Assembly: GCA_963713865.1 (NCBI GenBank)
Contig: OY970208.1
Coordinates: 896,001-960,000 of the forward strand
From: an uncultured candidate division Zixibacteria bacterium
GTDB lineage: Bacteria; Zixibacteria; MSB-5A5; RBG-16-43-9
Reading direction: 5' to 3'
DNA length: 64,000 nucleotides
This document shows, piece by piece, positions 1,029 through 54,059 of this stretch. The position numbers were made by a program, and so were the translations under genes. The stretch's first letter is position 1. Every line of letters begins with the position of its first letter. Below the pieces are notes generated by a model. It worked only from the letters and a program-made list of their open reading frames with translations. It did no database searches and had not been told where the DNA came from.

Positions 1029-2666
1029 ATGAAAAGAAAAAAGTTGATCTTGGGTTTTATTTTTCTTGTGTTTCTCATTTTCCATGTAAGCTCTTTTGCT
1101 CAAAAAATTTGTATAGATCCCGGACACGGTGGACCTGGTGCTTCAAAGTACTGGAATAATGGTGGGGGTGGAAATGAAGGTAGGGGTGCAGTAGGTCCGG
1201 ATGGATTAACCGAACAATGGATTAACTTAGAAGTAGCTAAAGAACTAAGATGGCAAATATACTTTTATCCTAATTATCCTGTGGTAATGACCCGTGAAAC
1301 AGATACCACAGACCTTACTCCTGTGCAGAGAGCTAGAATTGCGAATGATTCACTTGCAGACTGGTTCATCTCCATCCATCACCAAGGACTGAAACCTGAT
1401 CAATTCCAAAGAACAATGGCTTTTTACTGTAGTGCCCCAAAGACGCCCGTTTACCCCTACGAGGACAGAGATACCGATTCGCTCTTGGCCAAGAAAACTC
1501 TTTTTATGGTGCAAAATAATTTTCATTATCCTGATGGTTGTAGCTCACAATGCGGGCCTACACCTGACTGTAAAGACAGGGGTATCCTTCAATGCAACAC
1601 TTGTTATGATGTACTTCACTACAGCACCATGGTATCAGTACTGTCTGAAGCATCAAACATATCTTATGACGAATATGAAGAGTGGCTTTTTGATGGCAAC
1701 AATCAACATAGGTTGGCTGAAGCCCAGGGGCTTTATCATGGGTTAATGAGTTATATAAACGGTGCCGGAATCGCTACAGTAACAACTCGATGGATTGGAG
1801 GAGATGGTGGAGTAATAAGAGTAGATGGTGAAAATGAAATTTCCCCCTTTGTTACTTGTTGGGAGCAATTTGAGCAGCATTCATTACAAGCAGATTATCA
1901 GTATCTAGGTGAATATTACTGCGTACCCCATCACTGGCTTGAAGTTGAAACTGGATATACAAGCCCAGATCCGATTTGGATTATATCTGTACCCCCTGGT
2001 GAATCTACCCACACCTACATAGCCTATTACACAGGTGGTCCTTATGAAGCCAATCTTTTTATGCCGGATGGCGGGGAAGAATGGCTGGTTGGAGATGAGG
2101 GAGCGATTATCTGGGCTGGATTTGGGCCAGTAACTTCACCCGGAGTTGATTCTACTACTCTAATTGATGTCTTTTTAGATAGAAACGGAGGGCAGGATGG
2201 CTATGGTGAGATACTTTTTACTGGAATCCCCAGAAAGGATTACATGGCGGCAGGCTGGCAGGTCACTGGTCCAGCCTCAACTAAATGCAGGATAAAGATA
2301 GTTGCTCATGACTGCGTGGATAATACTGCAACGGATGTAAGCAGTTATGATTTCACCATCAGGTTCCCGAATATTTCAGGGGATGTCAATACTGACGGAA
2401 AAGTTTCTATATCAGACGTGGTTTATCTGATAAATTATCTTTTCAAATCAGGTCCTGGGTTTGAACCCTTATGGAAAGGTGATACCAATGGCGATTGCAA
2501 AGTAAGTTTATCAGATGTAGTCTATCTGATAAACTACCTTACAAAAGGCGGTCCAGCTCCGATTTGCGATGGTAGCTGCTGGGCTTGTATGCGGGCTTCA
2601 GTTAAAGAAGATGAGAATCCTTTTGTAAAAGACCCATCCTTAACGAAAAAAATCTATAAGCAATGA
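1029..2666 (+). CDS. Secreted N-acetylmuramoyl-L-alanine amidase (Amidase_3) with Ig-like region and C-terminal dockerin-like pair
   Basis: Signal peptide. Zn-amidase motifs ICIDPGHGG, LTEQ, FISIHH and SVLSE. Duplicated GDxNxDxKVSxSDVVYLINYL at about 2379-2561. Confidence 0.88.
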   Translation: MKRKKLILGFIFLVFLIFHVSSFAQKICIDPGHGGPGASKYWNNGGGGNEGRGAVGPDGLTEQWINLEVAKELRWQIYFYPNYPVVMTRETDTTDLTPVQRARIANDSLADWFISIHHQGLKPDQFQRTMAFYCSAPKTPVYPYEDRDTDSLLAKKTLFMVQNNFHYPDGCSSQCGPTPDCKDRGILQCNTCYDVLHYSTMVSVLSEASNISYDEYEEWLFDGNNQHRLAEAQGLYHGLMSYINGAGIATVTTRWIGGDGGVIRVDGENEISPFVTCWEQFEQHSLQADYQYLGEYYCVPHHWLEVETGYTSPDPIWIISVPPGESTHTYIAYYTGGPYEANLFMPDGGEEWLVGDEGAIIWAGFGPVTSPGVDSTTLIDVFLDRNGGQDGYGEILFTGIPRKDYMAAGWQVTGPASTKCRIKIVAHDCVDNTATDVSSYDFTIRFPNISGDVNTDGKVSISDVVYLINYLFKSGPGFEPLWKGDTNGDCKVSLSDVVYLINYLTKGGPAPICDGSCWACMRASVKEDENPFVKDPSLTKKIYKQ

Positions 2667-2829
2667 ATGTTATCTTATTTTAGAGGTAAAGTGATTAAAT
2701 TCAAGAAGTTTTAATAAAAACTTAATTAAACCAACTTTCCATATCTTGTGTATAAAATTAAGTAATTTACTATATGTAGATATGAAGTGCGTTAATTTAA
2801 AAATTTAACAAAAAGTTTTAAGATTTTGC

Positions 2830-2857
2830 TTGACAATAGATTAGTGCCTGTTATCTT
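2830..2857 (+). promoter_or_regulatory. sigma70-type promoter for the micro-gene
   Basis: TTGACA (2830-2835), 16-nt spacer, extended -10 TGnTATCTT (-10 at 2852-2857). Confidence 0.55.
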
Positions 2858-3052
2858 AAACCCAAGAGGAGAGGATGGTAAGTGCTGGGTTAATCTCATT
2901 ATTTATTAACTTACCCCTCCATAGCTGCTTTTTTGAAATGGGACTGTAGATTATAATTTATTAAAGTTAGCCTGATTGAATTAATAAAAGATCAGAGTAA
3001 CTTGCTCTGTCTTTTATTGCTCAGATTTTGAACAAAACAAGGAGGTGATGTA

Positions 3053-3133
3053 ATGGAGCTGAAAAAACTAATACTAGAGGTGGAGGAGTTAGAGGAGAAG
3101 ATTGCTCCTTTATCATCTAACGGCGATCAATAG
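3053..3133 (+). CDS. 26-aa peptide MELKKLILEVEELEEKIAPLSSNGDQ, possible RiPP/secreted-peptide precursor
   Basis: Strong SD AAGGAGGTG at 3039-3047, ATG 3053, TAG 3131-3133, upstream promoter and downstream terminator. Too short for the ORF track. Confidence 0.75.
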   Translation: MELKKLILEVEELEEKIAPLSSNGDQ

Positions 3134-3186
3134 TAACTTGCTTTTTGAAGTTACTTTCTTGGACGATAATTAACACCTCCTTAAGG

Positions 3187-3221
3187 AAGACCACCCGGCT
3201 TCTGGGTGGTCTTGTTTTTTT
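3187..3221 (+). terminator. Rho-independent terminator of the micro-gene
   Basis: Stem AAGACCACCC / GGGTGGTCTT followed by GTTTTTTT. Confidence 0.85.
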
Positions 3222-3571
3222 ATATTTTTTGTCGGTGATTAAAGTTTCCTTCGTGAAGCTGATGAAAACCTTTTTGAACTGCTTCCTTTACTCCTCGTCG
3301 GGTGAGATCTTTTGGTTCTGAGTTGATGTCCTGCAGGAGCACTGATATTTATCAAGAATGATTTTCTAATGAACAGGGGGTATATCGTTATATAAATAGC
3401 GAAGAATTAAATTCTGGTGGGTTAGTTTTTAAATTTTTAGGAGGTCTAAAGGTTTCCATTATAGAATGAGTCAAACGAAAAAAAGACCCACATCGGGGAT
3501 AGCTCCCAAAATACAACCTGGGTTTTTCGGTTAGTAAGTTCTTTTCAGATTTTTTAGAAATGCGAAATCTT

Positions 3572-4339
3572 TTACTCCTCTTCTTTTTCTAAAAGGAGAT
3601 TTCTCATTAGCTCGTCGATCCTTTCGATCCTGAAGGGCTTGGCTAAATATCCATCTGCTCCCTCTATCAGGGCTTTGTCCTCCGGGTAGGCGCTTGAGTA
3701 TGCGGTTATCATAATCACCGGGGTTTTCATATCCCCTTCCTTAATCTTTTTCATCAAGCTGATTCCATCCATATAGGGCATCTTAATATCAGTGATGACT
3801 AAATCGAAATGTTCTTTCTGTAAAATCTCCCAGGCCTTTTCTCCGTCCTCTGCGGCCGTAGAGAGATAGTCTAAAGAAGAAAGGGTATCGATGAGCATAT
3901 TTCTCAATACCTCATCATCATCCACCACTAATATTCTCTTAAGGCTTTTCTTGTTTTCGTCCTCAGGTTTTTTACGACCTAATAGATTTTCAATTGCCTC
4001 TTCCATCTTGCCGATACGGAACGGCTTGGCTAAAAAACCATCCGCTCCTTTCTGCAGAGCTTGTTCCATAGTATAGTTGTAATTATAACCAGTGATTAGA
4101 AGAACTGGCAGGTTCGGGTCCTTGGATTTAATGGATTCCACCAGAGAAAAGCCGGTCATTTTGGGCATCCTTATATCAGCAATTACCAGATCCATCTTCT
4201 GCTGATCTAAAAGGGTCAAAGCCTCTTCCCCGTCCTTAGCTCCGAAAGTATTATAGCCTAAAGCGGATAAAGTATCAATCATTAACTGCCGGACCTTCTC
4301 CTCATCATCCACGATCAAAACTTTAGTCCCTTGATTCAT
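3572..4339 (-). CDS. Response regulator with two tandem receiver domains and no output domain
   Basis: Two REC domains: VLIVDD..DLVIAD..KPF and ILVVDD..DLVITD..KPF. Start placed at ATG 4339 (AGAGG SD); 4378 is an alternative. Confidence 0.9.
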   Translation of the reverse strand: MNQGTKVLIVDDEEKVRQLMIDTLSALGYNTFGAKDGEEALTLLDQQKMDLVIADIRMPKMTGFSLVESIKSKDPNLPVLLITGYNYNYTMEQALQKGADGFLAKPFRIGKMEEAIENLLGRKKPEDENKKSLKRILVVDDDEVLRNMLIDTLSSLDYLSTAAEDGEKAWEILQKEHFDLVITDIKMPYMDGISLMKKIKEGDMKTPVIMITAYSSAYPEDKALIEGADGYLAKPFRIERIDELMRNLLLEKEEE

Positions 4340-4444
4340 ACAGACCTCTACTTTGTAGGTGTAAACTTGTGTCTCCATATATTTTTATCGTATTTTTCGG
4401 GAATTACTTTAAGGAAAATAAAAGAAAATTGGGGTGGGTTTTTT

Positions 4445-5812
4445 TCAGGAACGGATAAGATTCAAAACCTCAGATTTCTTTTGTTCCATCAGCTCTTTTG
4501 TGTCTGCCTCTAAGTTCAGGCGAATCAAGGGCTCGGTGTTAGAAGGTCTCAGGTTAAACCACCAGTCCGGGTATTCTACAGTGAGTCCATCCAGGTGGTC
4601 GAACCTGGCATCTTTATAAAAAGATTCGATATTTTTAAGTTTATGGGGAATATCCTCGATCCGGGAATTTATCTCCCCGGTTCTGAAATAAGGGTCGATT
4701 GAGCTTACCAGTTGAGAGAGCGGTTTATCTTCTTCAGAGAGAAGCTCCAGACAGATCAAGAGAGCTATCATACCAGAATCAGCATAGAAATTTTTTCGGA
4801 AGTAGAAATGACCGGAGTGCTCTCCTCCGAAAATGGCGTTATATTTTTTCATCAGAGGTTTTATCAGGGCATGTCCAACCGGAGTGCGGATGCCTTTTCC
4901 ACCATTCTGCTTAATTATCTCAAGAACAGTCCTAGAACATGGAACATTGTATAATATGGTTGCACCTTTTTCCTTTTTTAATAAATTCTTGGCTACCAGA
5001 GCAGTTACTAAATCACCTCCTAAGGGAAAGGCTTTCTCATCTACCAGGAACATCCGGTCTGCATCTCCATCAAAAGCCACACCCAGGTCTGCTTTTTCCT
5101 TTAAAACTTTCTGTCTTAAGGGAGCGATATTCTCCGGCTCCATAGGGCTGGGGGGATGGTTGGGGAAAGAACCATCTAATTCAAAGAACATCGGAATAAT
5201 CTGACAGTGAAGATAAGAAAAAAGTTCTGGTAAAATCTTGCCAGCAATCCCGTTCCCCGCATCAATTGCTATCTTAAAGGGTTTGATCTTTTGTGGCTGG
5301 ATGAAAGAGAGAAGATGCTGGATATGGTCAGCCTGGACATCCTGTTTTCTTATCTCCCCTTTTTTCGTAGTAATCAGAAATCCACCTTTAAGGATAATCT
5401 CTTTGATCTGCTCAATCCCCTCTTTTCCACTTAGAGGGACCGCTTCTTTTTTACACATCTTCATACCGTTGTAATCCTTAGGATTATGAGAGGCGGTGAT
5501 CATAATCCCGGAATCGTATCCGAATTTCCCTACAGTAAAATAAAGGGCATCAGTACTGCATAAGCCGATATCTATAATATCCGAACCGGATTCAGTTATC
5601 CCCTGAACGAGACTATTTCTTAAGGTTTCTGAGGAGAGACGCATATCCCTGCCCAAAACTACCTCATCCGGCTTAAGGTGTTTGACAAAAGCTTTTCCGA
5701 TCAGGAAGGCAACCTCCTCATTTAACTCCCCAGGATATATTCCTCTTATGTCATAAGCCTTGAATATGGCCGGGTTTATCTTTCCACTAGAAGCTTTTCC
5801 TTTTAATTGCAT
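4445..5812 (-). CDS. manB: Phosphomannomutase/phosphoglucomutase
   Basis: FKAYDIRG, TASHNP (phosphoserine), FDGDADR, GGEHSGH, RPSNTEP. Confidence 0.92.
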   Translation of the reverse strand: MQLKGKASSGKINPAIFKAYDIRGIYPGELNEEVAFLIGKAFVKHLKPDEVVLGRDMRLSSETLRNSLVQGITESGSDIIDIGLCSTDALYFTVGKFGYDSGIMITASHNPKDYNGMKMCKKEAVPLSGKEGIEQIKEIILKGGFLITTKKGEIRKQDVQADHIQHLLSFIQPQKIKPFKIAIDAGNGIAGKILPELFSYLHCQIIPMFFELDGSFPNHPPSPMEPENIAPLRQKVLKEKADLGVAFDGDADRMFLVDEKAFPLGGDLVTALVAKNLLKKEKGATILYNVPCSRTVLEIIKQNGGKGIRTPVGHALIKPLMKKYNAIFGGEHSGHFYFRKNFYADSGMIALLICLELLSEEDKPLSQLVSSIDPYFRTGEINSRIEDIPHKLKNIESFYKDARFDHLDGLTVEYPDWWFNLRPSNTEPLIRLNLEADTKELMEQKKSEVLNLIRS

Positions 5813-6023: not shown

Positions 6024-9000
6024 TTATTTACCTACCATTACCTGGGTGAGTTTTCTTATATCTATGATGAGATTAAGTTTCTCTTCCTCGTTTAGATAGC
6101 TTTGTTTAAGGTCCGGGTCTTCGATATTCTGGCTTAAATCCTTGATGAGCTTGCCAGCCATTTCATATTCCTTATAAGCGTTTTCCATATCATTCTTCGT
6201 AAAGCTGATTTTCCCTCTAAGGTAATGTATTCTCCAGACCAGCTCAAATTTATTAAGCTTTGAAGCTTTATTTAAAGCTGTTTCTGAATATCTTTGTGCC
6301 TGATCAAAATTTTCATTTTCAATTTCTTTACGGAAGAGAAGGAAATAATATTCGGGTTCAATCAAGGGAAAACTACTCTGGTCGATGATTTTCTTAGCCT
6401 TCTCCAGAAATTTTTCAAACATCTGGTATCGGCTTGAGTCCAGATAGAGCCAGGCAAAATCTAAATTTAAGTTGAGCTTATCCTCTAAAGAATTCAACTC
6501 TTCAGCCCATTCCAATGAATTCTCATGCAGTTTTAATGCTTCAGCCACTTTCTTCTTTTTCCTTAAAAATATCCCTTTTAAGCGCCCAACTGTAATCTGG
6601 GTACGTCTATCATTTATTTCTCTTGATATCTCCAAACCTTTTTCTATAAACCGATCCGCATCCTCTGAGCGGTTTAACAAGAATAACAACCTTGCCATAG
6701 AGATAAAAACCGAGGCTTTCAATTCTTTATCTTCCATCTTTTCAGAAAGCGTTAGAGACTCCTTTAATAGCTCTAAAGCTCTCTGGTAAAAGCCAGTTTC
6801 AAAATCTATATTAGCCAGATTCTTCAATAAGTATCCAACCGGGAGTAGGAAATCTATTTTCCGGGCTATCTCTAAACCCATATTGGCATAGCTGGCAGCT
6901 TTCTCATACTCCCCCAACTTGAAATAACATTCGCTAAGATTTACTGTGTTTATGGTGATCTCCTTTTTGTTCTCAATCTCCTGGTTTAATTCAAGAGACT
7001 CCATGTAGGAACTGATTGCATTTTGGAGACTTCCCATAAGATAATAAACAAATCCGATATTATTTAAACTTCGTGCTATCTCCTCTTTATTCCCCAGCTC
7101 TTTTTTTATCTGTAAAGACTCATTATGATATTCCAGTGCTCTTCTATATTGATGTTGAGAAACATAAATTGAGCCCATATTATTTAAAGTGGAGGCTATA
7201 TCAGACTTGTTCTCCAGAGCGCGTTGAATTTCCAGAGCTTCCCCAAACGCTTCTAAGGCTTTTTGATATTGAGAGTCTATCCAGTAGATATTCCCGATAT
7301 TATTAAGGGTGTGGGCGACCTCTTTATTATCCTTCAGGTCCTGGAAGATCATCTTGGCTTTAAGCAAAAATTCTAAACCTTTCTGGTGGTCATGTTTTAA
7401 CCTGAAAAGAGCTCCTAAGTCTTTATAAGTTTCAGCGATTAATCTCCTATCTTCTGAAGGATCAGCTATTTTTAGAATCTCTTCGTAATCTTTTTGAGCC
7501 TGTTTTAGTTCGCCAATGTTTTTCAGCAGGTCACCCTTCTGCATAAGGGTGTGGGAAATCCTTTTTTCTCTTTCCTTTTTTTCGGAAAATTTTCCCGCAG
7601 CTTCTAAGGTTTTATTAAGATATTTTAAGGCTTGAGGATAGTCTAAATCCTTCTGGTTTTTGACAGCACATTGAAATGAATATCCAAAAGCTTTTTGGTA
7701 ATCATCGCTTAAAATAAAATGATGGGCAACTGTCTCGGTCTCAATCTCTTCTCCCTGAGATTTTCTTTCCTCCAGATGATAAGCCAGTTTGCGATGAAGT
7801 GGCTCTTTCCCCGGGTTGAAATTCTTATAGATCAAGGACTGAAGAACAGGACTGGCAAAATTATATACCAGAAAGGAGGGTTTCTTTTGAGTCTGTATCA
7901 GGATCCTATCCTTTAAAAGGACGAAAAGTGTTTCAAAGATTTTCTCCTCATCATATCCGGTTAAGAATTTTATAGATTTCAGGTCGAATTCTATCCCGAT
8001 TAAAGCTGCCAGGTTCAGGAAGCTCAAGACCTTCTCAGGATATCTTTTTAGATTTCCCAAAATGGTCTTCTCGATATTATCCGGAATCTCAAGCTCCGCT
8101 AAGAGTTTTTTCTCTAATCTGAACGAACCTTTTTCAAAGTAGAGAACCTTCTTTTCAAAAAGGTATTTTAAAATCTCCAGAGCAAAAAGCGGAACTCCAG
8201 AAGAATTATGATAGATGAAATCAAGCAAGGATTTTGAGATAGTCTGCTCTGCTAACTTCTGGGATAAAAGCTCCTCTAATTCCTTTAGAGTCAAAGGAGG
8301 TAATCTTAGAAAGTGGAGCTGGCTTGTGCCGGTAAGTCGGTTGATCAGAGATTTAAGTTTACCCTGCGGGTCTAAATCGTTTTCCTCCAGTGTCCCGACT
8401 AAAAAGAGCTTAGATCTATCCAGGGTTTTGGTTAGCTCCTCTATGAAACTAAAACATCCTTCTCCCATCCAGTGAAGGTCTTCGAAGGCTAAAACAAAAG
8501 GGAAAAGATTAGAAGCCTCAAAAAGAAAGGATGATAGTCTATCCAGCTTTAAATTTTCCTGCTCTTCTTGATCTGGAGTTACCGTTAGGAATAATTTAAA
8601 ATCCTCCTCATATTTCTGGCACAGTGGCGGAGAGAGCTGTTGAAAGAAAGGCCAGATTTTTCTGAAAAGCTCCTTCAGGGGTTGTAAAGGATAGGTTTCT
8701 TCTTTGGGACAATTGATCTGGACAAAAAGGATCCCCTCCAGCTGACTTTCTTTTTTGAGATAATTTAACAGGGTAGACTTCCCTATTCCCAACCCTCCTT
8801 CGATTAAAAACATCCTCCCAGCATTAGAGAGAGACTCTTTTAATTCTTTTTGCAGAATCTGGTATTCTTTTTCCCGGGCAAGGATTTTGCCGTCGTAAAG
8901 CTGGTTTATATAGGAACTCTTTTCAGCTCCCCAGAGGGGAAAAGTTACGATCTGGGAGAGTTTTTCTTTTAACTCTGAGATGTTCTGGAAACGGTCTTCA

Positions 9001-9749
9001 GGTTTTTTTCGAAGAAGTTTTAACACTAAAGAGTCCAGTTCCTCAGATACTCCAGCTCTAAAGGCAGAGGGAGGAGGAGGGATTTTTTCTAAATGATTAG
9101 ATCTCAAAACCAAAGGATCTTCAGAAATAAAAGGAAGCTTGGAGGTTAAAAGCTCAAATAAGATCACTCCCAGGGAATACAGATCTGCTCGCTGGTCAAT
9201 TTTTTTGCCAAGCCAGACCTCTGGAGCCATATAATCAGGCGTTCCCTCGATTTGATCTGAAGTCTGACCAGAGGAGGTTCGAACCAACCCGAAATCCAGG
9301 ATTTTGACGGAAAAGATACCCGGAGTTAATTTGAAGTTGGACGGTTTTAAGTCAGCGTGGATTAAATTTTGTGAGTGGAGGTATTCTAAAATATCACTGA
9401 TCTGCCAGACGAGCTTGTAAAACCTATTTAAATCTTGCTGGGCAACTTCTGGAGATAACTCTTCACCTTCTACCAGCTCCATTGTGTAGAAAGCTTTTTT
9501 TTCTCTGGTATAGCCAAAATCATATACTTCCACTATCCCTGGATGAGATAGCTCTGAGGTTAGCCTGAACTCCTGCTTGAATTTCTCCAGGCCATTTTTT
9601 TCTTCGCCGCCAAAAGCAGTGTGGAGTTTCAAAGCTATCCTTTTTTCCTCCCAGAGGTCAAAAACCTCAAATACCATCCCTAAGCCACCCTGGGCTAATT
9701 TTTTTATAATCTGATATCGAGGAGTTATATACTTTTTTTCTTCTAACAT
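6024..9749 (-). CDS. Ser/Thr protein kinase fused to STAND-type AAA ATPase and TPR repeats
   Basis: Kinase motifs HADLKPSN, DFG, GTPDYMAPE. P-loop GGLGIGKST and Walker B FEDLHW. Repeated A.TLNNIG.IY TPRs. Confidence 0.9.
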   Translation of the reverse strand: MLEEKKYITPRYQIIKKLAQGGLGMVFEVFDLWEEKRIALKLHTAFGGEEKNGLEKFKQEFRLTSELSHPGIVEVYDFGYTREKKAFYTMELVEGEELSPEVAQQDLNRFYKLVWQISDILEYLHSQNLIHADLKPSNFKLTPGIFSVKILDFGLVRTSSGQTSDQIEGTPDYMAPEVWLGKKIDQRADLYSLGVILFELLTSKLPFISEDPLVLRSNHLEKIPPPPSAFRAGVSEELDSLVLKLLRKKPEDRFQNISELKEKLSQIVTFPLWGAEKSSYINQLYDGKILAREKEYQILQKELKESLSNAGRMFLIEGGLGIGKSTLLNYLKKESQLEGILFVQINCPKEETYPLQPLKELFRKIWPFFQQLSPPLCQKYEEDFKLFLTVTPDQEEQENLKLDRLSSFLFEASNLFPFVLAFEDLHWMGEGCFSFIEELTKTLDRSKLFLVGTLEENDLDPQGKLKSLINRLTGTSQLHFLRLPPLTLKELEELLSQKLAEQTISKSLLDFIYHNSSGVPLFALEILKYLFEKKVLYFEKGSFRLEKKLLAELEIPDNIEKTILGNLKRYPEKVLSFLNLAALIGIEFDLKSIKFLTGYDEEKIFETLFVLLKDRILIQTQKKPSFLVYNFASPVLQSLIYKNFNPGKEPLHRKLAYHLEERKSQGEEIETETVAHHFILSDDYQKAFGYSFQCAVKNQKDLDYPQALKYLNKTLEAAGKFSEKKEREKRISHTLMQKGDLLKNIGELKQAQKDYEEILKIADPSEDRRLIAETYKDLGALFRLKHDHQKGLEFLLKAKMIFQDLKDNKEVAHTLNNIGNIYWIDSQYQKALEAFGEALEIQRALENKSDIASTLNNMGSIYVSQHQYRRALEYHNESLQIKKELGNKEEIARSLNNIGFVYYLMGSLQNAISSYMESLELNQEIENKKEITINTVNLSECYFKLGEYEKAASYANMGLEIARKIDFLLPVGYLLKNLANIDFETGFYQRALELLKESLTLSEKMEDKELKASVFISMARLLFLLNRSEDADRFIEKGLEISREINDRRTQITVGRLKGIFLRKKKKVAEALKLHENSLEWAEELNSLEDKLNLNLDFAWLYLDSSRYQMFEKFLEKAKKIIDQSSFPLIEPEYYFLLFRKEIENENFDQAQRYSETALNKASKLNKFELVWRIHYLRGKISFTKNDMENAYKEYEMAGKLIKDLSQNIEDPDLKQSYLNEEEKLNLIIDIRKLTQVMVGK

Positions 9750-9825: not shown

Positions 9826-11533
9826 TTAAGGAAAGATGGTAGGAAAGCTGATCAAAAAGGTGGTTCCTTTTCCTACCAGGCTTTCCACTTTTATCTCCCC
9901 TCTATGGTTTTTTATGATCTTCTGACAGGTAACCAGTCCCAGACCATGACCTTCTTTTTTGGTGGTGAAATGCGGCTCGAAGATCCGGTTTAAATTCTCC
10001 GGTGGTATTCCTAGTCCGTTGTCTTCTATTTTCACCCAGACCTTTTTCTCCAGCGGTTTATACTCACAGGAAATCAAGATCTCTCCTTTTCCCTCTGGCT
10101 TGATTCTGATGGCTTCGGCCGCATTGTTCAACAGGTTTAAGAAAACCTGCTGAATCTGTCCTCCATCTAACTCTAACAGAGGAAGCTCCGGATCAAAGTA
10201 GTGGTTTAATTTTATTCCTGAGAATTTACTCTGAGGTTTCAAGGAAAAGAGGAGGTCCTCTACTAAATTTTTCAGATCATACTTTTCCACCTGAGTTTCC
10301 AGCCTGGAGAAATCCATCAGTCCATCGGTGAAACGTTTCATAGTGTCAACGCTTTCTAAGATGGCTTTAGAATTAGCCGTGGCTTTATCCAGTTCTCCCT
10401 TCTTCAAATGCAGAGGAAGTAGCTCGGCATTATTCAGGATTATAGTAAGGTAATTATTTAACTCATGTCCGATAGAAGCCGCCATTTCCCCTGTGGCTAC
10501 AAGCTTTTCAGATTGGATCAGCCTTTTTTCTAAAAGGACCTTATCGGTAATATCCTCCACCACTAAAATTAATCCCATAATTCGATTTTCCACGTTATGC
10601 AGGGGACTAACCTTTAAGGACAGGACTAACTCTTCTTTTTCGAACTTATAAAAAGACTTAGCCTCTTCGTAAGGCTGACTGGTATAGAGAACCTGATAAC
10701 AGATCTTCTTCCATTTGTTTCTCTCTTCTGTAGGAATTAAATCTAAAATGGAGACCTGGCTTAAGGACAGATTAATTAACTCCTCTCTCCAGCCGGTCTT
10801 CTTGAAAATTTCTTTAGAGGCCTGGTTAGCTATGGTGATCTGAAGACTGTTATCCACCACGATCAGACCAATCGGGGTACGGCTGACTACGTTTTCGTTA
10901 TAAATTTTCAGAGCTAAAAGATTTTCGTAGAGCTTGGCGTTCTCGATAGCTATGGCTGCCTGTCCAGCAAAAAGCTCAAAGAGATGAAGGTCGCTCTGTA
11001 AAAACACGTTACTTTTGGAGGAGTTATCCAGGTATAAGATCCCGATGACCTTTTCCTTACTTTTAAGGGGGACGCACATAATCGATTTCAGATTGAGCTC
11101 TAAGATGCTTTTCTGTTTGGAGAACCTTTCATCGTTCAGAGCATCGCTGGTATAGGTCGACTCAGCATTTGAGGCCACCTTATTAGCGATGGACATGCTT
11201 ATCCTGAAATCCTCTTTGTTCAAGGATTCCTTGGAGATATTATGGGCGGTCTTGAACTGAAGCTCTCCCGTATCATCTAAAAGCATCAGAAAGCCTCTTT
11301 CCGCTCTTAACAGGGAAACTGCCTTTTTCATCACTGTTTGGAGGATGTCATCCAGCACCAGCGAGGAGTTGATGGCCTGGCTGACCTCCAGGAGCGCTTC
11401 TAAATCATCATTTTTGAATTTCACTGAATTGTTGTTCTGCAAACGGGGGTGTGCAGTTTGAACTTTCTGGAAGAGGCTTTCCATTTCTTCCAGTGCGGTT
11501 CTGGTTTTTTTTGGGAACCCCACTGTTACTCAT
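9826..11533 (-). CDS. GAF-PAS sensor histidine kinase
   Basis: GAF (CVPL..GILYLD), PAS-like region, H-box GHELNN, N-box NLLNNA, G boxes. Likely true start is ATG 11533 after GGAGGAGG, which needs one A fewer in an A8 run; the ORF track starts at GTG 11523. Confidence 0.88.
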
Positions 11534-46157: not shown

Positions 46158-46283
46158 GAGATTCTTCGGTCATCTCGCCAAAGGCGGACTCCCTCAGAAT
46201 GACAGAAAAGGATCGAAGAATCAACTTCGGGCGGAGACCCTGTAAAGCTGGGTTTCGCAAAGCTCAACGAGCTCCGCCCCTAC
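46158..46283. repeat. REP-like elements upstream of the M50-HlyD gene
   Basis: GAGATTCTTCG..CTCAGAATGACA. GGGCGGAG..CTCCGCCC-CTAC shares the GTAAA..GGGTTTCGC...GCTCAAC core with 15426-15481. Confidence 0.7.
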
Positions 46284-46315
46284 GCGAATTACGCGGATTT
46301 TCAAACCGAGGGATT

Positions 46316-48631
46316 ATGACTGGGGAATATCCGAAGTTCAGGCAAGATTTAATCATAAGCCAGCAGGAATTTGAGGGGAAGACTTACTATGTTATCAAAG
46401 ACCCCCTCACCAGGAAATTCTTCAGACTAAAAGAGCCTGAATATTTTATCACCCGGAATTTAGACGGGGAGAAATCAAATCAAGATATAGTTGAAGAATT
46501 TGAGAAAAAATTCCAGATAAAATTAGATTTACCCACTTTAGAGAATTTCCTTTCCCAGTTAGAGAAATTGGGTTTTTTAGAGGGGGAGATTTCTCAAAGG
46601 GAACTTTCCAGGTTACAATACAGGGCAGAAAAGGAAAAAACTCTTATCAGGAAAATCCTCTTCATAAAGCTCAAAGCTTTTGATCCGGACAAATTCTTAA
46701 ATAAGCTATTGAAGAAATTCAAATTCCTTTATACCAAAGGATTTTTGTACTTCTCCCTTTTCATAATCTTTTTAGCTTTGGTGATTACCATCTCCAACTG
46801 GGGAGACTTAGGATACAGTTTCAAAGGGTTATTCCGCCTGACCACTATTGTCAAGCTCTGGTTAGCTATTTTCTTGATCGCTTTAGTACATGAGTTGGGA
46901 CATGCACTAACCTGCAAATATTTCGGGGGGGAAGTCCACGAGATGGGGTTTTTATTGATCTATTTCCAGCCCGCTTTCTTCACCAACGTCTCGGATGCCT
47001 GGATGTTCAAGGAAAAAAAGAAAAAGCTTTTGGTTTCCTGGGCAGGGATTTATATTCACCTTTTCCTCTGGGCAACTGCCACCCTTTTGTGGAGAATAAC
47101 CGATCTGGAGACCCAGCTTAGCTCTTTTCTTTTTGTGGTTATGATTGTCTCCGGGGTCTTAATCATCTTCAACTTCAATCCCCTGATAAAGTTAGATGGT
47201 TATTATCTTTTATCCGACTGGCTGGAGATACCCAATCTGCGTAAAAAAGCTTTTGGATACCTGGGATCTTTTTTTAAAAGTAAAATTATTAAGACCGGAG
47301 AGAAGACAGTTGAAGCTTCACCAAGAGAAAAAAAGATTTTTCCCTGGTACGGAACCCTGTCCATACTTTACTCTTTTCTCTTGATCTTCTATTTTTTCAT
47401 AAGAGCGGGTAACTTTTTGGTTTCCAGGTATCAGGGTTATGGATTTGCCTTGTTTTTGGTTATCCTTTATTTTATCTTTCAACAGCCGCTGAAAATTGTT
47501 CTGGCTGGTGGCTTTCATCTTTTTTTAATAAAGAAAGAAGGATTTATGAAGCCAAAAAAACTCTTCACCTATACGGGCATAGTTCTCGTTCTCCTGATCT
47601 TATTATTCGTGGTGAAGCTGGATTTGAAGATCAGCCAGGAATGTGAATTCGCTGCCCTGGAGACCTATTCCATAATCAATAGCCCCTCGACCGAGTTTTT
47701 AGAGGAACAGCTCTATCAGGAAGATAAGGAAGAAAAAAGGCAGGTTAATATCCTGAGGATGATCTCCTCCACCTACGGGATTGTGAATTTGGAACCGGTG
47801 GTAAAGGAAGGGCAGAGGGTAAAAAAGGACGAGGTTATCATCCGCCTGCTCTCCAATCAATACACCAATGAACTGGAGGAGACTGAAGCAGCTATCCGAA
47901 AGGAGAAGGCTAATTTAGAGCTTCTGATTAAAGGTGCCAGACCCGAGGAGATCGAGCAGGCAGAGGAGCAGGTTAGAAAAGCGGAAACGAAACTGCAGTC
48001 CAGCGAAAAAGAGCTTAACCGGCTGAAGGAACTTAACTCGCAGGATCTTATCTCCAAAGAGGAGTGGGAGAAGAAAGAATCCGATAACAATGTTCTGGTT
48101 TCAGAACTTAATATCGTCCGGAACAACCTGAAGATACTTAAGAAAGGTGCCAAAGAAGAAGAGATCGAGATGTCCAAGGCAGAGATCAGTGGCCTGGAGG
48201 CGAAAGCGAAATTTTTCAAAGACCAGGTATCAGCCTCGGATTTAAAAACCCCGATCTCCGGAATAGTAACCCAGGTAATGCCTGCCGGGGAAATACTAAG
48301 CATTGCTAACTACGATACGATGAGGGTATTAATCCCGGTATCTGAAAAAGATTTAGATGTCATCAAATTAGGTCAGAAGGTAAAAGCCAAGGTGAGGAGC
48401 TTCCCTTTTAAGTCCTGCTCCGGGGTTGTAACCAGGATTGCTCATCAGGGGGAAAAATATAAATCCCGCCTGATTTTTTTGGTCACCAGCAAAATAGATA
48501 ACACCCAGTCTCTTCTGAAGCCGGGGATGACCGGACAGGCAAAAATCTACTGCGGTAAAAGAAGCATTATCTCACTTATACTGCGCAGGATAATCCGCTG
48601 GCTCAGGGTCGAGGTCTGGTCCTGGTTCTAA
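46316..48631 (+). CDS. PqqD/RRE-like domain + M50 intramembrane metalloprotease + HlyD-type membrane fusion protein
   Basis: N-terminal YYVIKDP..FFRL..LDG..FLSQLEKLGFL; HELGH and NPLIKLDG; coiled coil GARPEEI..TPISGIV..LKPGMTG. Start moved to ATG 46316 because the upstream part is REP DNA. Confidence 0.85.
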   Translation: MTGEYPKFRQDLIISQQEFEGKTYYVIKDPLTRKFFRLKEPEYFITRNLDGEKSNQDIVEEFEKKFQIKLDLPTLENFLSQLEKLGFLEGEISQRELSRLQYRAEKEKTLIRKILFIKLKAFDPDKFLNKLLKKFKFLYTKGFLYFSLFIIFLALVITISNWGDLGYSFKGLFRLTTIVKLWLAIFLIALVHELGHALTCKYFGGEVHEMGFLLIYFQPAFFTNVSDAWMFKEKKKKLLVSWAGIYIHLFLWATATLLWRITDLETQLSSFLFVVMIVSGVLIIFNFNPLIKLDGYYLLSDWLEIPNLRKKAFGYLGSFFKSKIIKTGEKTVEASPREKKIFPWYGTLSILYSFLLIFYFFIRAGNFLVSRYQGYGFALFLVILYFIFQQPLKIVLAGGFHLFLIKKEGFMKPKKLFTYTGIVLVLLILLFVVKLDLKISQECEFAALETYSIINSPSTEFLEEQLYQEDKEEKRQVNILRMISSTYGIVNLEPVVKEGQRVKKDEVIIRLLSNQYTNELEETEAAIRKEKANLELLIKGARPEEIEQAEEQVRKAETKLQSSEKELNRLKELNSQDLISKEEWEKKESDNNVLVSELNIVRNNLKILKKGAKEEEIEMSKAEISGLEAKAKFFKDQVSASDLKTPISGIVTQVMPAGEILSIANYDTMRVLIPVSEKDLDVIKLGQKVKAKVRSFPFKSCSGVVTRIAHQGEKYKSRLIFLVTSKIDNTQSLLKPGMTGQAKIYCGKRSIISLILRRIIRWLRVEVWSWF

Positions 48632-52376: not shown

Positions 52377-54059
52377 ATGACAAGAAAAATAAGTATAGTT
52401 ATAATTATTTTTTTGCTTTTTTCTGTATCTTCTGAGATAGGTCAATGTCAAAGCCCCAGTCAATATGCTTTAATTCAGCGCCCAGTTATGGAAAATCCTC
52501 TAATATGGAAGTTAACCAAATTTCAAACTGATAGCCTATGGAGTAAGAGTCTATTTTACAATCCCGTGTCCGCCTCTCAGTCCTATATTATGGATCCAAC
52601 ATATTATCTTTATAGTGGAATGGCATTTGAACTTGATATGGGCTGGAACAGGATGTTGTATTCGGAGTGTTTGGATGACTGGATAAGAGCTTATGGGACT
52701 TATGGCTCTGGTAGCGGGCAATTTAGCTGGCCCAAAAGATTGGATTGTGAGGCAGTCTGTAATCAAGATTTCTTTAGTGCTTATTACCGTATCTTTATTG
52801 CAGATGCATCCAATAACCGTATAGTAAAGTTAAGATATGACTGGCGTTTTGAAAATCAGACCATAATCAATGATGGGGTAATAAGCGGAAATGGATTAGA
52901 ACTGCCTCTGGATATTGACATAAATAACGGATTTGACTTTTACCCGGTGACTAATGACTATCTCTGGGTTTTAAATGGAAATTCACAGATTAAAAGATTT
53001 ACTTTCGATGGAACTTTAAAGAACACCTATGGTAGCTATGGATCTGGCGTAGATCAATTCTGCAGACCCACTGCTATAGTCAGTGGTAGACATTATGCTC
53101 TTTCCTATCCTTATGAGCCGTTTGCCAATACGAATTATTTCTATGTTGCTGATCGGGGTAACAACCGGATTGTATGGCTTTACAAAAATCCCGGGAGTGA
53201 GGCGATAACCTGGATTAGTGAAACAAATACAGACCGGGACATTGTCGATTTAGAAACGGATAATTTTGGTCATATCTGGGCAGTTGATAGAACGAATGGT
53301 CAAGTTATTAAATATTTAATGCAGGCTGGAGGGATCCTGTTTCCATTATGTACCTTTGGGAGTTCAGGCTTTGGTGAGAATCAGTTCTATCATCCGGTAA
53401 GCTTATCTAATACCGGTGGATATTTAGGCTGTGGCAATGTTTATGTGCTTGAATCCTGGACCGATTCAAGCGGAGGACAATATTTTACAATTGCCACTGA
53501 TATAGTTGATTACAACGTCTATTCAGACAGTAACCATTTCACTCACTGTGCTAATTATATATTAGTTGATCCAGCCGGGATTTACTTTAAAATTTACAAC
53601 GAATCAGGAAATCTTATCAGAACAGTTCAACCGGTTTATGTTTATTATTCAGGTCCTATTTCACATTGGTGGGATGGAAAAGATGATGCCGGGCAAAAAG
53701 TTGCCAGTGGCAATTATTTGATGAAAGTTAGTGCTGTATCGGTTTATGTTAATATTAATGAACCTGGAAATCCACCTGCTGATTCTATTACCAAAGAGGG
53801 CTGGGTATGTAACGTGCATCCCAATGATATTTTAGGTGATGTCAATAGTAATCTTACAGTTGAAAGCGCAGATATCGTTTATTTAATCAACTATATATTT
53901 AAAGGCGGGCCTGGATTTGCTCCTTTCTGGAAAGGTGATACCAATGGAGATTGCAAGGTTTCACTAGGTGATATAGTCTATCTGATAAATTATCTTTTTA
54001 AAGGTGGACCTGCCCCACAGTTAAACTTCAGTTGTTCTCCCTGGAGATGTCAGTCTTAA
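52377..54059 (+). CDS. Secreted NHL-repeat protein with FlgD-Ig domain and dockerin-like pair
   Basis: GSGSGQFSWP and ADxxNNRI repeats; WDGKDDAGQKVASGNY; dockerin-like pair at about 53835-54017. Confidence 0.85.
   Translation: MTRKISIVIIIFLLFSVSSEIGQCQSPSQYALIQRPVMENPLIWKLTKFQTDSLWSKSLFYNPVSASQSYIMDPTYYLYSGMAFELDMGWNRMLYSECLDDWIRAYGTYGSGSGQFSWPKRLDCEAVCNQDFFSAYYRIFIADASNNRIVKLRYDWRFENQTIINDGVISGNGLELPLDIDINNGFDFYPVTNDYLWVLNGNSQIKRFTFDGTLKNTYGSYGSGVDQFCRPTAIVSGRHYALSYPYEPFANTNYFYVADRGNNRIVWLYKNPGSEAITWISETNTDRDIVDLETDNFGHIWAVDRTNGQVIKYLMQAGGILFPLCTFGSSGFGENQFYHPVSLSNTGGYLGCGNVYVLESWTDSSGGQYFTIATDIVDYNVYSDSNHFTHCANYILVDPAGIYFKIYNESGNLIRTVQPVYVYYSGPISHWWDGKDDAGQKVASGNYLMKVSAVSVYVNINEPGNPPADSITKEGWVCNVHPNDILGDVNSNLTVESADIVYLINYIFKGGPGFAPFWKGDTNGDCKVSLGDIVYLINYLFKGGPAPQLNFSCSPWRCQS

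Follow-up and report, generated by a model that had tools for sequence, protein, structure and literature searches.

A 26-residue peptide encoded by a Zixibacteria bacterium is well supported in silico as the product of a real gene, one that is under purifying selection and retained by most members of the phylum. We consider it probable that the gene encodes a daptide-like ribosomal precursor, from which an RRE-guided protease cut would free a short core for HlyD-mediated export and use in a regulatory circuit. The gene lies in the window (the whole 64,000-nucleotide stretch of DNA that was analysed), which comes from a genome assembled as one contig (2.72 Mb, 40% G+C, 94% complete). The initial annotation had described a stand-alone gene with a Shine–Dalgarno (SD) sequence, a promoter-like site and a terminator, and all of these elements were located as first described. 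The list also gives the two hairpins upstream of the SD and the anti-SD, which are additions to that description:

2830–2857, forward strand: promoter-like TTGACA-16 nt-TATCTT, TG-extended (TG before the second hexamer), found by pattern scan.
2866–2919, forward strand: hairpin GAGGGG...CCCCTC in the presumed 5′ untranslated region (UTR), followed by a T run (minimum-free-energy (MFE) fold and family alignment).
2993–3009, forward strand: small terminator-like hairpin with a T run, between promoter and SD, found by pattern scan.
3039–3047, forward strand: SD sequence AAGGAGGTG, 5 nt before the ATG.
3053–3133, forward strand: open reading frame (ORF) of 26 amino acids, reading MELKKLILEVEELEEKIAPLSSNGDQ.
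3053–3109, forward strand: leader-coding part of 19 codons, MELKKLILEVEELEEKIAP, assigned from codon statistics and a daptide-like register.
3110–3133, forward strand: core-coding part, LSSNGDQ (derived relative to the xGxSxGGQ consensus of the phylum) and the stop codon.
3174–3182, forward strand: anti-SD sequence CACCTCCTT in the 3′ UTR, the exact complement of the SD, just before the terminator.
3187–3221 (stem 3187–3213), forward strand: intrinsic terminator with a 12-bp stem (seven G-C pairs) and a T run, found by pattern scan.

The peptide is conserved well beyond its own genus. A protein search recovered it with SD and ATG in 30 of 41 related genomes, with positives in all four families of the window's order but in none of the seven families sampled outside it. 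A profile built from 29 of the order's peptides (A1) and run over 285 Zixibacteria genomes matched in 223 of them (105 of 130 genera), mostly once per genome, and all 40 distant loci that were extracted held a short ORF of 21–34 amino acids with the leader motif; a contig scan gave six confirmed loci, none of them additional. Paralogs in the window's own genome were found neither by tblastn (next best E value, 0.17) nor by the profile, which returned a single match. Among rows of the window's order, every one with a full MEL... start has an SD of the GGAGGTG type, as do 38 of 41 distant rows; 39 of 40 distant loci have a GGAGG-type or GGGAGG SD, the one poor SD belonging to a second copy in locus L081. 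Homologs keeping SD, ATG and leader, whose absence the initial annotation had named among the refutations of its claim, are present across the phylum.

The codon pattern is that of a protein-coding sequence. The last 12 leader codons, compared across 66 distinct DNA versions, gave a pN/pS of 0.20 in frame (pS, 0.81; pN, 0.16) versus 1.28 and 2.39 in the other two frames, and the invariant L(−7) and P(−1) are written with all six Leu codons and all four Pro codons, respectively. Rfam models searched over 2600–3600 (E values up to 10) gave matches at chance level only (best, 23 bits versus a gathering score of 55). Pfam returned no matches for five peptides, and no NCBIfam model matched the peptide at its cut-off, the sole sub-threshold match being the pearlin scaffold model NF033737 (E values, 0.0018–0.03). 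This match is the one trace of the resemblances raised in the initial annotation, to planctomycete ExLExR leaders and to the IEVIESK end of TglA.

The leader follows the motif L-x-[VI]-E-x-L-E-E-[KR]-[IV]-A-P; in an alignment of 50 peptides, the residues E, L, E and P never change, and L, A and S hardly ever do. Among 66 distinct peptides, the core has 7–8 residues in 52; 58 cores contain GG, 64 contain Ser and a single one contains Cys, with Gly making up 37% of tail residues and Thr approximately 0%. GGQ ends 23 of these peptides and many others end in GGR, GGRP or GG, the last residue being Q, G, R, P, S or others. The two other species of the window's genus have the cores LSSAGGQ and LASASGQ, and some lineages have Ser-free cores (AGYAGGGL, LGARVGGA). 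Of the conserved leader with variable tails that had been predicted, the leader held and free variation of the tail within Zixibacteria did not: tails are constrained inside the phylum, in contrast to the hypervariable tails seen solely in a wider metagenome family. A double-glycine leader was considered separately and dropped by eye, as the hydrophobic and acidic positions before GG misfit the consensus; it would also leave a cargo of only 0–3 residues.

The flanking elements are conserved to different degrees. The −35 box and a TAnnnT −10 box are present in nine of nine aligned loci of the same family, and 2830–2857 is a promoter-like, candidate promoter, the RNA contig described below beginning only at 2997. 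The pattern scan was weak on its own, with 2 promoter-like sites versus 4.2 expected and 4 terminator-like sites versus 1.1 expected, and the extended −35 motif TTGCTTGACA was uninformative (9 occurrences versus 6.3 expected). Both arms of the 2866–2919 hairpin are conserved in the family alignment and the hairpin at 2993–3009 is poorly conserved; the fold of the 5′ UTR (2862–3010) was no better than that of shuffled sequences (z = −0.47). A 24-amino-acid ORF at 2875–2949 behind a second SD was rejected, being unconserved, with relatives reading ATG TAA. The stem sequence of the terminator is conserved in nine of nine family loci.

In the predicted fold of 2997–3222 (MFE, −65.4 kcal/mol; z = −3.2), the SD pairs with the 3′ segment CACCUCCUU and the whole ORF is enclosed, in both the MFE and the centroid structure. 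ACCTCC lies within 130 nt past the stop codon in 28 of 33 loci of the window's order and in four of four loci of family f13, compared with 0 of 36 other loci and 3.6% of random windows, and its pairing with the SD appeared in 26 of 31 folds. These models suggest that in the window's clade the 3′ anti-SD may close the ribosome-binding site, with translation gated in this way. Both SD and anti-SD are invariant, hence there is no covariation to assess.

A contig of 185 nt from a sediment metatranscriptome (word depth, 73.7) covers 2997–3180 and is approximately 97% identical to the window, with six differences; the two listed within the ORF (3064 and 3076) are at third positions and synonymous (codons read by eye). 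As RNA contigs carry no strand, ends or level, and RNA libraries can contain DNA, we take this contig as a hint of expression in a close relative. RNA run X1 yielded no contig over 2505–2908 or 3212–4524, gaps that carry no weight; weak RNA contigs at 2408–2444 and 4607–4854 are 89–92% alike and perhaps come from other organisms.

A presumed processing and export partner is encoded elsewhere in the window:

46316–48631, forward strand: RRE-M50 (site-2 protease)-HlyD fusion protein, from matches to NF041824, PF02163 and HlyD models.

The first ATG of this gene is at 46199 and the alignments of relatives begin at 46316. The N-terminal 360–400 residues match NF041824, a daptide intramembrane metalloprotease model (daptide_HExxH), with E values of 5.7e-63 (213 bits; the window's protein) and 1.6e-56 (192 bits), below the cut-off of 300 bits. 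The protein also matches PF02163 (M50) and, weakly, NF058609 (E = 8.5e-14), and its C-terminal part matches the adaptor models HlyD/RND_mfp and HlyD_D23. Six hydrophobic, putative transmembrane (TM) segments are followed by a coiled coil and a barrel-sandwich adaptor, and the H-E-x-x-H and N-x-x-P-x-x-x-L-D-G motifs are invariant in 19 fusion sequences. Residues 1–120 have a predicted fold (pLDDT, 88) of three strands plus helices, whose best match in the PDB is TbiB1 with its leader peptide (E = 4.7e-4; probability score, 1.0), followed by further RRE matches to lasso peptide B1, TruD/LynD, PqqD, CteB and SkfB. The product is the sole strong match in its own genome; databases name such proteins 'putative peptide zinc metalloprotease protein' (JGI) or 'efflux RND transporter periplasmic adaptor subunit' (NCBI). 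In the window, no ABC or other transporter gene lies beside the fusion gene.

Peptide and fusion genes are linked in position and in occurrence. In 20 of the 40 loci that represent other families, the fusion gene directly precedes the peptide gene on the same strand; it usually has approximately 770 codons and ends 230–640 bp before the peptide gene. At least 33 genomes have the two within approximately 1.1 kb (where both coordinates are listed); seven genomes of family f16 keep a constant distance of 20–22.5 kb. Such adjacency is found in none of 33 loci of the window's own order, and in the window the two genes are 43 kb apart. Fusion genes were detected in 239 of the 285 phylum genomes: both genes are present in 219, the peptide without the fusion in 4, the fusion without the peptide in 20 and neither in 42. 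Both are missing in families f5 (0 of 3 genomes) and f6 (0 of 5), and genera g36 and g37 of family f10 are mixed, with species that carry the pair alongside species that lack both genes. The co-occurrence with RRE-M50-HlyD genes for which the initial annotation had proposed to look is borne out by these counts, for which no statistic is given because the genomes are related, and so not independent, and many are incomplete.

To relate leader and protease, a complex was modelled from the cognate pair of locus L083 (protease residues 1–440 and a 32-amino-acid peptide, each with its own alignment). Its ipSAE was 0.70 (runs, 0.71, 0.70 and 0.68) versus 0.01 for the best of three controls, a mark reached for 58 of the 80 solved complexes, compared with 2 of the 110 mismatched pairs; the modelled pair is a relative's rather than the window's, and the score may reflect solved RRE–leader complexes. 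The runs share at least 76% of contacts, with a partner pLDDT of at least 54. In the model, peptide residues 6–13 run along RRE residues 33–38, and residues 14–20 (R-I-A-P-V-G-L) contact H191 and E192 of the HExxH motif and K291–D293 of the LDG motif. Strand addition is the classic mode by which RREs bind leaders, and the model supports a leader on the RRE strand with the A-P junction placed at the active site.

On the reading that we favour, the partner is a single membrane protein: its cytoplasmic RRE domain would capture the leader by strand pairing, its M50/site-2 zinc protease would cut after A-P to yield the seven-residue core LSSNGDQ (xGxSxGGQ elsewhere) and its periplasmic HlyD-type part may hand the core on towards the outer membrane, with the 3′ anti-SD perhaps gating translation of the precursor in the window's clade. 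The cut after IAP that had been proposed from the window alone fits both the daptide P(−1) register and the L083 model; we infer cleavage, export and a signalling role. Several observations run counter to this reading: the wide separation of the two genes here and their lack of adjacency throughout the window's order, the conservation of the core within the phylum, which is unusual for secreted RiPPs, the 20 genomes with a protease and no detected peptide, the lack of a transporter gene beside the window's fusion gene and the failure of all NCBIfam models to reach their cut-offs on the peptide.

The regulatory part of the proposal comes from the genes around the peptide:

1029–2666, forward strand: amidase_3-dockerin protein.
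3572–4378, reverse strand: double-REC response regulator.
4445–5812, reverse strand: phosphoglucomutase.
6024–9749, reverse strand: Ser/Thr kinase (Pkinase)-AAA_16-TPR protein without a TM segment, the usual convergent neighbour in relatives.
9826–11523, reverse strand: GAF-PAS histidine kinase, encoded upstream of, and codirectionally with, the Ser/Thr kinase.

The flanking genes bear out the earlier remark that no modifying enzyme lies beside the peptide gene. The peptide and kinase genes of the window's genus have the genes for the response regulator and the phosphoglucomutase between them; across 73 loci, a kinase or TPR regulator lies within the first two downstream ORFs in 60 (25 of 33 in the order and 35 of 40 distant loci). 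In distant loci, a convergent Pkinase-TPR gene of 1,000–1,290 codons has its stop approximately 25–80 bp past that of the peptide, and a histidine kinase gene stands behind the Ser/Thr kinase gene in most. Five loci of the order have instead a TPR–sigma-54 activator, behind a protein of approximately 100 amino acids of unknown family. The kinases match generic kinase and TPR models alone, below the cut-offs of those models. The link between kinase and peptide is strong as a neighbourhood, and a functional tie is putative. Because this kinase-TPR and histidine kinase neighbourhood is constant, we would place the peptide in a regulatory or signalling circuit rather than an antibiotic pathway.

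The same neighbourhood could point to a different role, which we regard as unlikely but the most serious competitor: the peptide may be an intracellular ligand, pseudo-substrate or substrate of the cytoplasmic kinase-TPR protein, with the conserved, helix-prone leader bound by the TPR sensor, the near-invariant Ser serving as phospho-acceptor and the M50 protease merely switching the peptide off or releasing it by regulated proteolysis. Retention of the kinase/TPR neighbour (60 of 73 loci) exceeds that of the protease neighbour: it stays even where the protease gene has moved away, and the TPR–sigma-54 activator takes over in loci that lack the kinase. No TM segment is present in the kinase, Ser is found in nearly all cores and conservation spans the whole peptide, beyond the leader. 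However, peptide and kinase genes are convergent and not co-transcribed, TPR-kinase proteins are common regulators whose task may be just to control the locus, Ser-free cores occur in some lineages (AGYAGGGL and LGARVGGA), and the daptide register of the leader and its modelled placement on the RRE are left unexplained.

The boldest reading, to which as a whole we give about one chance in several, joins these elements into a phylum-wide circuit. The leader-guided protease-HlyD fusion would make, and perhaps export, a 7–8-residue xGxSxGGQ peptide without an ABC pump; the cytoplasmic kinase-STAND-TPR protein would serve as a dedicated sensor or modifier that binds this peptide or the freed leader, or that phosphorylates the near-invariant Ser; the anti-SD would gate translation; and the leader would be a general address for export or processing in many soil phyla. 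Such a circuit, if true, would have no known counterpart among diderm bacteria.

It is decidedly less probable that the peptide gives rise to a modified product (a RiPP or a PqqA/MftA-like cofactor), with xGxSxGGQ as the substrate of tailoring enzymes encoded elsewhere. In favour are the small size of the precursor, its single-copy presence throughout the phylum, its conserved core and its RRE partner, and small precursors with RRE partners are found in PqqA/PqqD and MftA/MftB. Ser-directed kinases occur in class III/IV lanthipeptide clusters and some daptide clusters, PF00069 being listed in a figure legend of the daptide paper (10.1101/2023.03.08.531785). Against it, no tailoring enzyme is a conserved neighbour across the 73 loci, 65 of 66 cores have no Cys, and the kinase has the layout of a PknB-type N-terminal kinase with AAA/TPR and scores far under the cut-offs of the LanL and LanKC models (72 and 36 bits versus 650 and 575).

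A C-terminal carrier—either a pearlin-type scaffold for an aminoacyl-tRNA ligase or a Pup-like modifier—is very improbable and close to refuted. Pup ends in GGQ or GGE, and 23 of 66 peptides end in GGQ, but the window's peptide ends in GDQ and many others in GGR, GGRP or GG. The Pup-type modifier was rejected on the absence of the Pup ligase/Dop family from the genome (PF03136, 0 matches), the control genome of Corynebacterium glutamicum being positive. M50 proteases (TglG and TmoG) act in pearlin pathways (excerpts of PMC10885120), and NF033737 gave the sub-threshold matches mentioned above; the pearlin scaffold was rejected with these at 14–18 bits versus a cut-off of 30 and the LanB/PEARL-type family PF04738 unmatched in the genome, a model that was silent in the control genomes too. 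Finally, a chance ORF within a conserved non-coding RNA or regulatory region, to which the predicted structure of the transcript (z = −3.2) and the lack of annotation in the region might point, is refuted because of the codon pattern, in which third positions vary while amino acids stay fixed, with SD and ATG kept phylum-wide and all Rfam families below threshold, and its probability is negligible.

Beyond Zixibacteria, the profile gave 137 matches (E values up to 0.001) among 1.84 billion representative proteins. They include the same leader followed by hypervariable tails of 30–55 residues, proteins with 2–4 leader-like units each followed by a G..NHNETL stretch and one protein of 241 residues; their source names are all 'hypothetical protein', and one member is labelled Limnocylindrales. 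A metagenome scan gave 36 loci, with an RRE-M50 homolog in 13, directly downstream on the same strand in 10; the contigs are mostly 1–3 kb, and absence of the protease means little. One of these loci includes the HlyD part as well, together with a convergent kinase. As this leader also precedes hypervariable tails in soil metagenomes, the leader–protease pair may represent a large and so far unstudied way to produce or export peptides. Annotation mostly overlooks genes of 21–40 codons; in this candidate phylum, few small genes are as widely conserved as this one, and it has an identifiable partner. The favoured reading, if true, would extend the RRE and site-2-protease logic of daptides to a pump-less protease-adaptor fusion in diderms, with a near-minimal product that has no tailoring enzymes and is tied to Ser/Thr kinase signalling. 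The pair would be a simple tag-and-protease system that is testable in E. coli.

Full-text searching (supplementary files aside) returned no published description of a system of leader peptide and RRE-M50-HlyD protein, and several known systems share parts of it. PqqA and MftA are single-copy and conserved across lineages; as in PqqA/PqqD and MftA/MftB, a small precursor with a conserved core would be bound by an RRE protein, PqqD itself being among the fold matches, whereas the radical-SAM enzymes required there have no linked counterpart here. In Firmicutes, the site-2 protease Eep processes peptide pheromones that are detected by TPR-type receptors in the cytoplasm (Rgg/SHP, RRNPP). The Zixibacteria locus resembles these systems in a tiny peptide gene beside a cytoplasmic TPR regulator and in the putative role of a site-2 protease in maturation, but its candidate receptor is a Ser/Thr kinase rather than a DNA-binding protein, and an RRE with leader recognition takes the place of their signal-peptide-like segment. 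The epipeptide system EpeX with EpeP/YydH likewise has a membrane M50 protease and a small ribosomal peptide, EpeP being thought both to cut and to export its peptide (PMC10885120), and the weak NF058609 match of the fusion protein is a further likeness; unlike here, EpeX needs a radical-SAM epimerase, with none linked in Zixibacteria, and EpeP has no HlyD fusion.

The closest likeness is to daptides (MpaA/DapA with MpaP/DapP). Excerpts of Ren et al. (10.1101/2023.03.08.531785) give their precursors a leader motif ELExMEAP, with P at −1 and L(−7) and M(−4) essential, that is removed by an RRE-fused intramembrane site-2 protease. The Zixibacteria leader, E-L-E-E-K-I-A-P, is in the same register (E(−8), L(−7), an acidic residue at −6, A(−2) and P(−1)), and its putative leader peptidase is likewise an M50 protease with an N-terminal RRE. 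Membership of the daptide class itself was rejected: the Thr that invariably ends daptide cores is missing, scans of the neighbouring genes showed no tailoring enzymes and the protease is below the equivalog cut-off. With Pfam and NCBIfam models, DapB (DUF-RRE), the DapC dehydrogenase, the aminotransferase and the methyltransferase (DapB/C/D/M) were not found among representative neighbours of the peptide or the fusion gene. A core of 7–8 residues further differs from the long aliphatic stretch of daptides, the protease is HlyD-fused and under the NF041824 cut-off (213 versus 300 bits), and the precursor is single-copy and conserved across its phylum. The hosts also differ, Zixibacteria being diderms of the FCB group and daptide clusters belonging to Actinomycetota and Bacillota. 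The system is best filed as the leader and RRE-site-2-protease module known from daptides, here in a distinct variant marked by its HlyD fusion, minimal conserved core, phylum-wide conservation and link to a kinase-TPR protein.

The 26-aa peptide gene (3053–3133, forward strand), which encodes a leader ending in A-P and a short Gly/Ser core, is enclosed in its entirety between the SD (3039–3047) and, in the 3′ UTR, an anti-SD (3174–3182) that is the perfect complement of the SD. The anti-SD is retained within the order of the window's bacterium and in the Zixibacteria family f13, and is absent from the remaining phylum. Further upstream lies a second element:

2866–2940: conserved hairpin (GAGGGG...CCCCTC), then CTTTTTGAAA, downstream of the TTGACA box and ahead of the small gene

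The hairpin and CTTTTTGAAA could act as an attenuator, or be a small RNA in their own right. A 24-aa ORF (2875–2949) that overlaps this region is not conserved.

At the related locus L081 (genome G176), the peptide gene is present as a tandem duplicate with copies approximately 475 bp apart, both of which carry a Trp/Gly-rich extension beyond GGQ (..GGQNLWGGGGWG and ..GGQNLWGGFGGG); similar extensions were found at L073, L082 and L083. The usual convergent neighbour, a Ser/Thr kinase–TPR gene, is replaced downstream of the peptide gene at five loci (L034, L033, L035, L018 and L012) by a gene for a protein of approximately 100 aa that matches no Pfam family; next, on the strand of the peptide gene, comes a TPR–sigma-54 activator.

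For the RRE-M50-HlyD fusion gene, the presumed processing and export partner, the longest ORF begins 39 codons upstream of the start in all relatives (46199–46315), and the ATG at 46316 is the likely true start. Elsewhere in the window, two proteins (1029–2666 and 52377–54059) contain dockerin type I domains, one as an N-acetylmuramoyl-L-alanine amidase fusion and the other fused to NHL/FlgD-Ig modules.

Among the environmental proteins matched by the peptide profile, six (P0122, P0125, P0127, P0131, P0141 and P0177; 74–135 aa) contain 2–4 tandem units, each consisting of a leader copy (..EELE.KIAPG), a few residues and then NHNETL(V/L). Each of these proteins could be a multi-unit precursor for a protease of the same kind.
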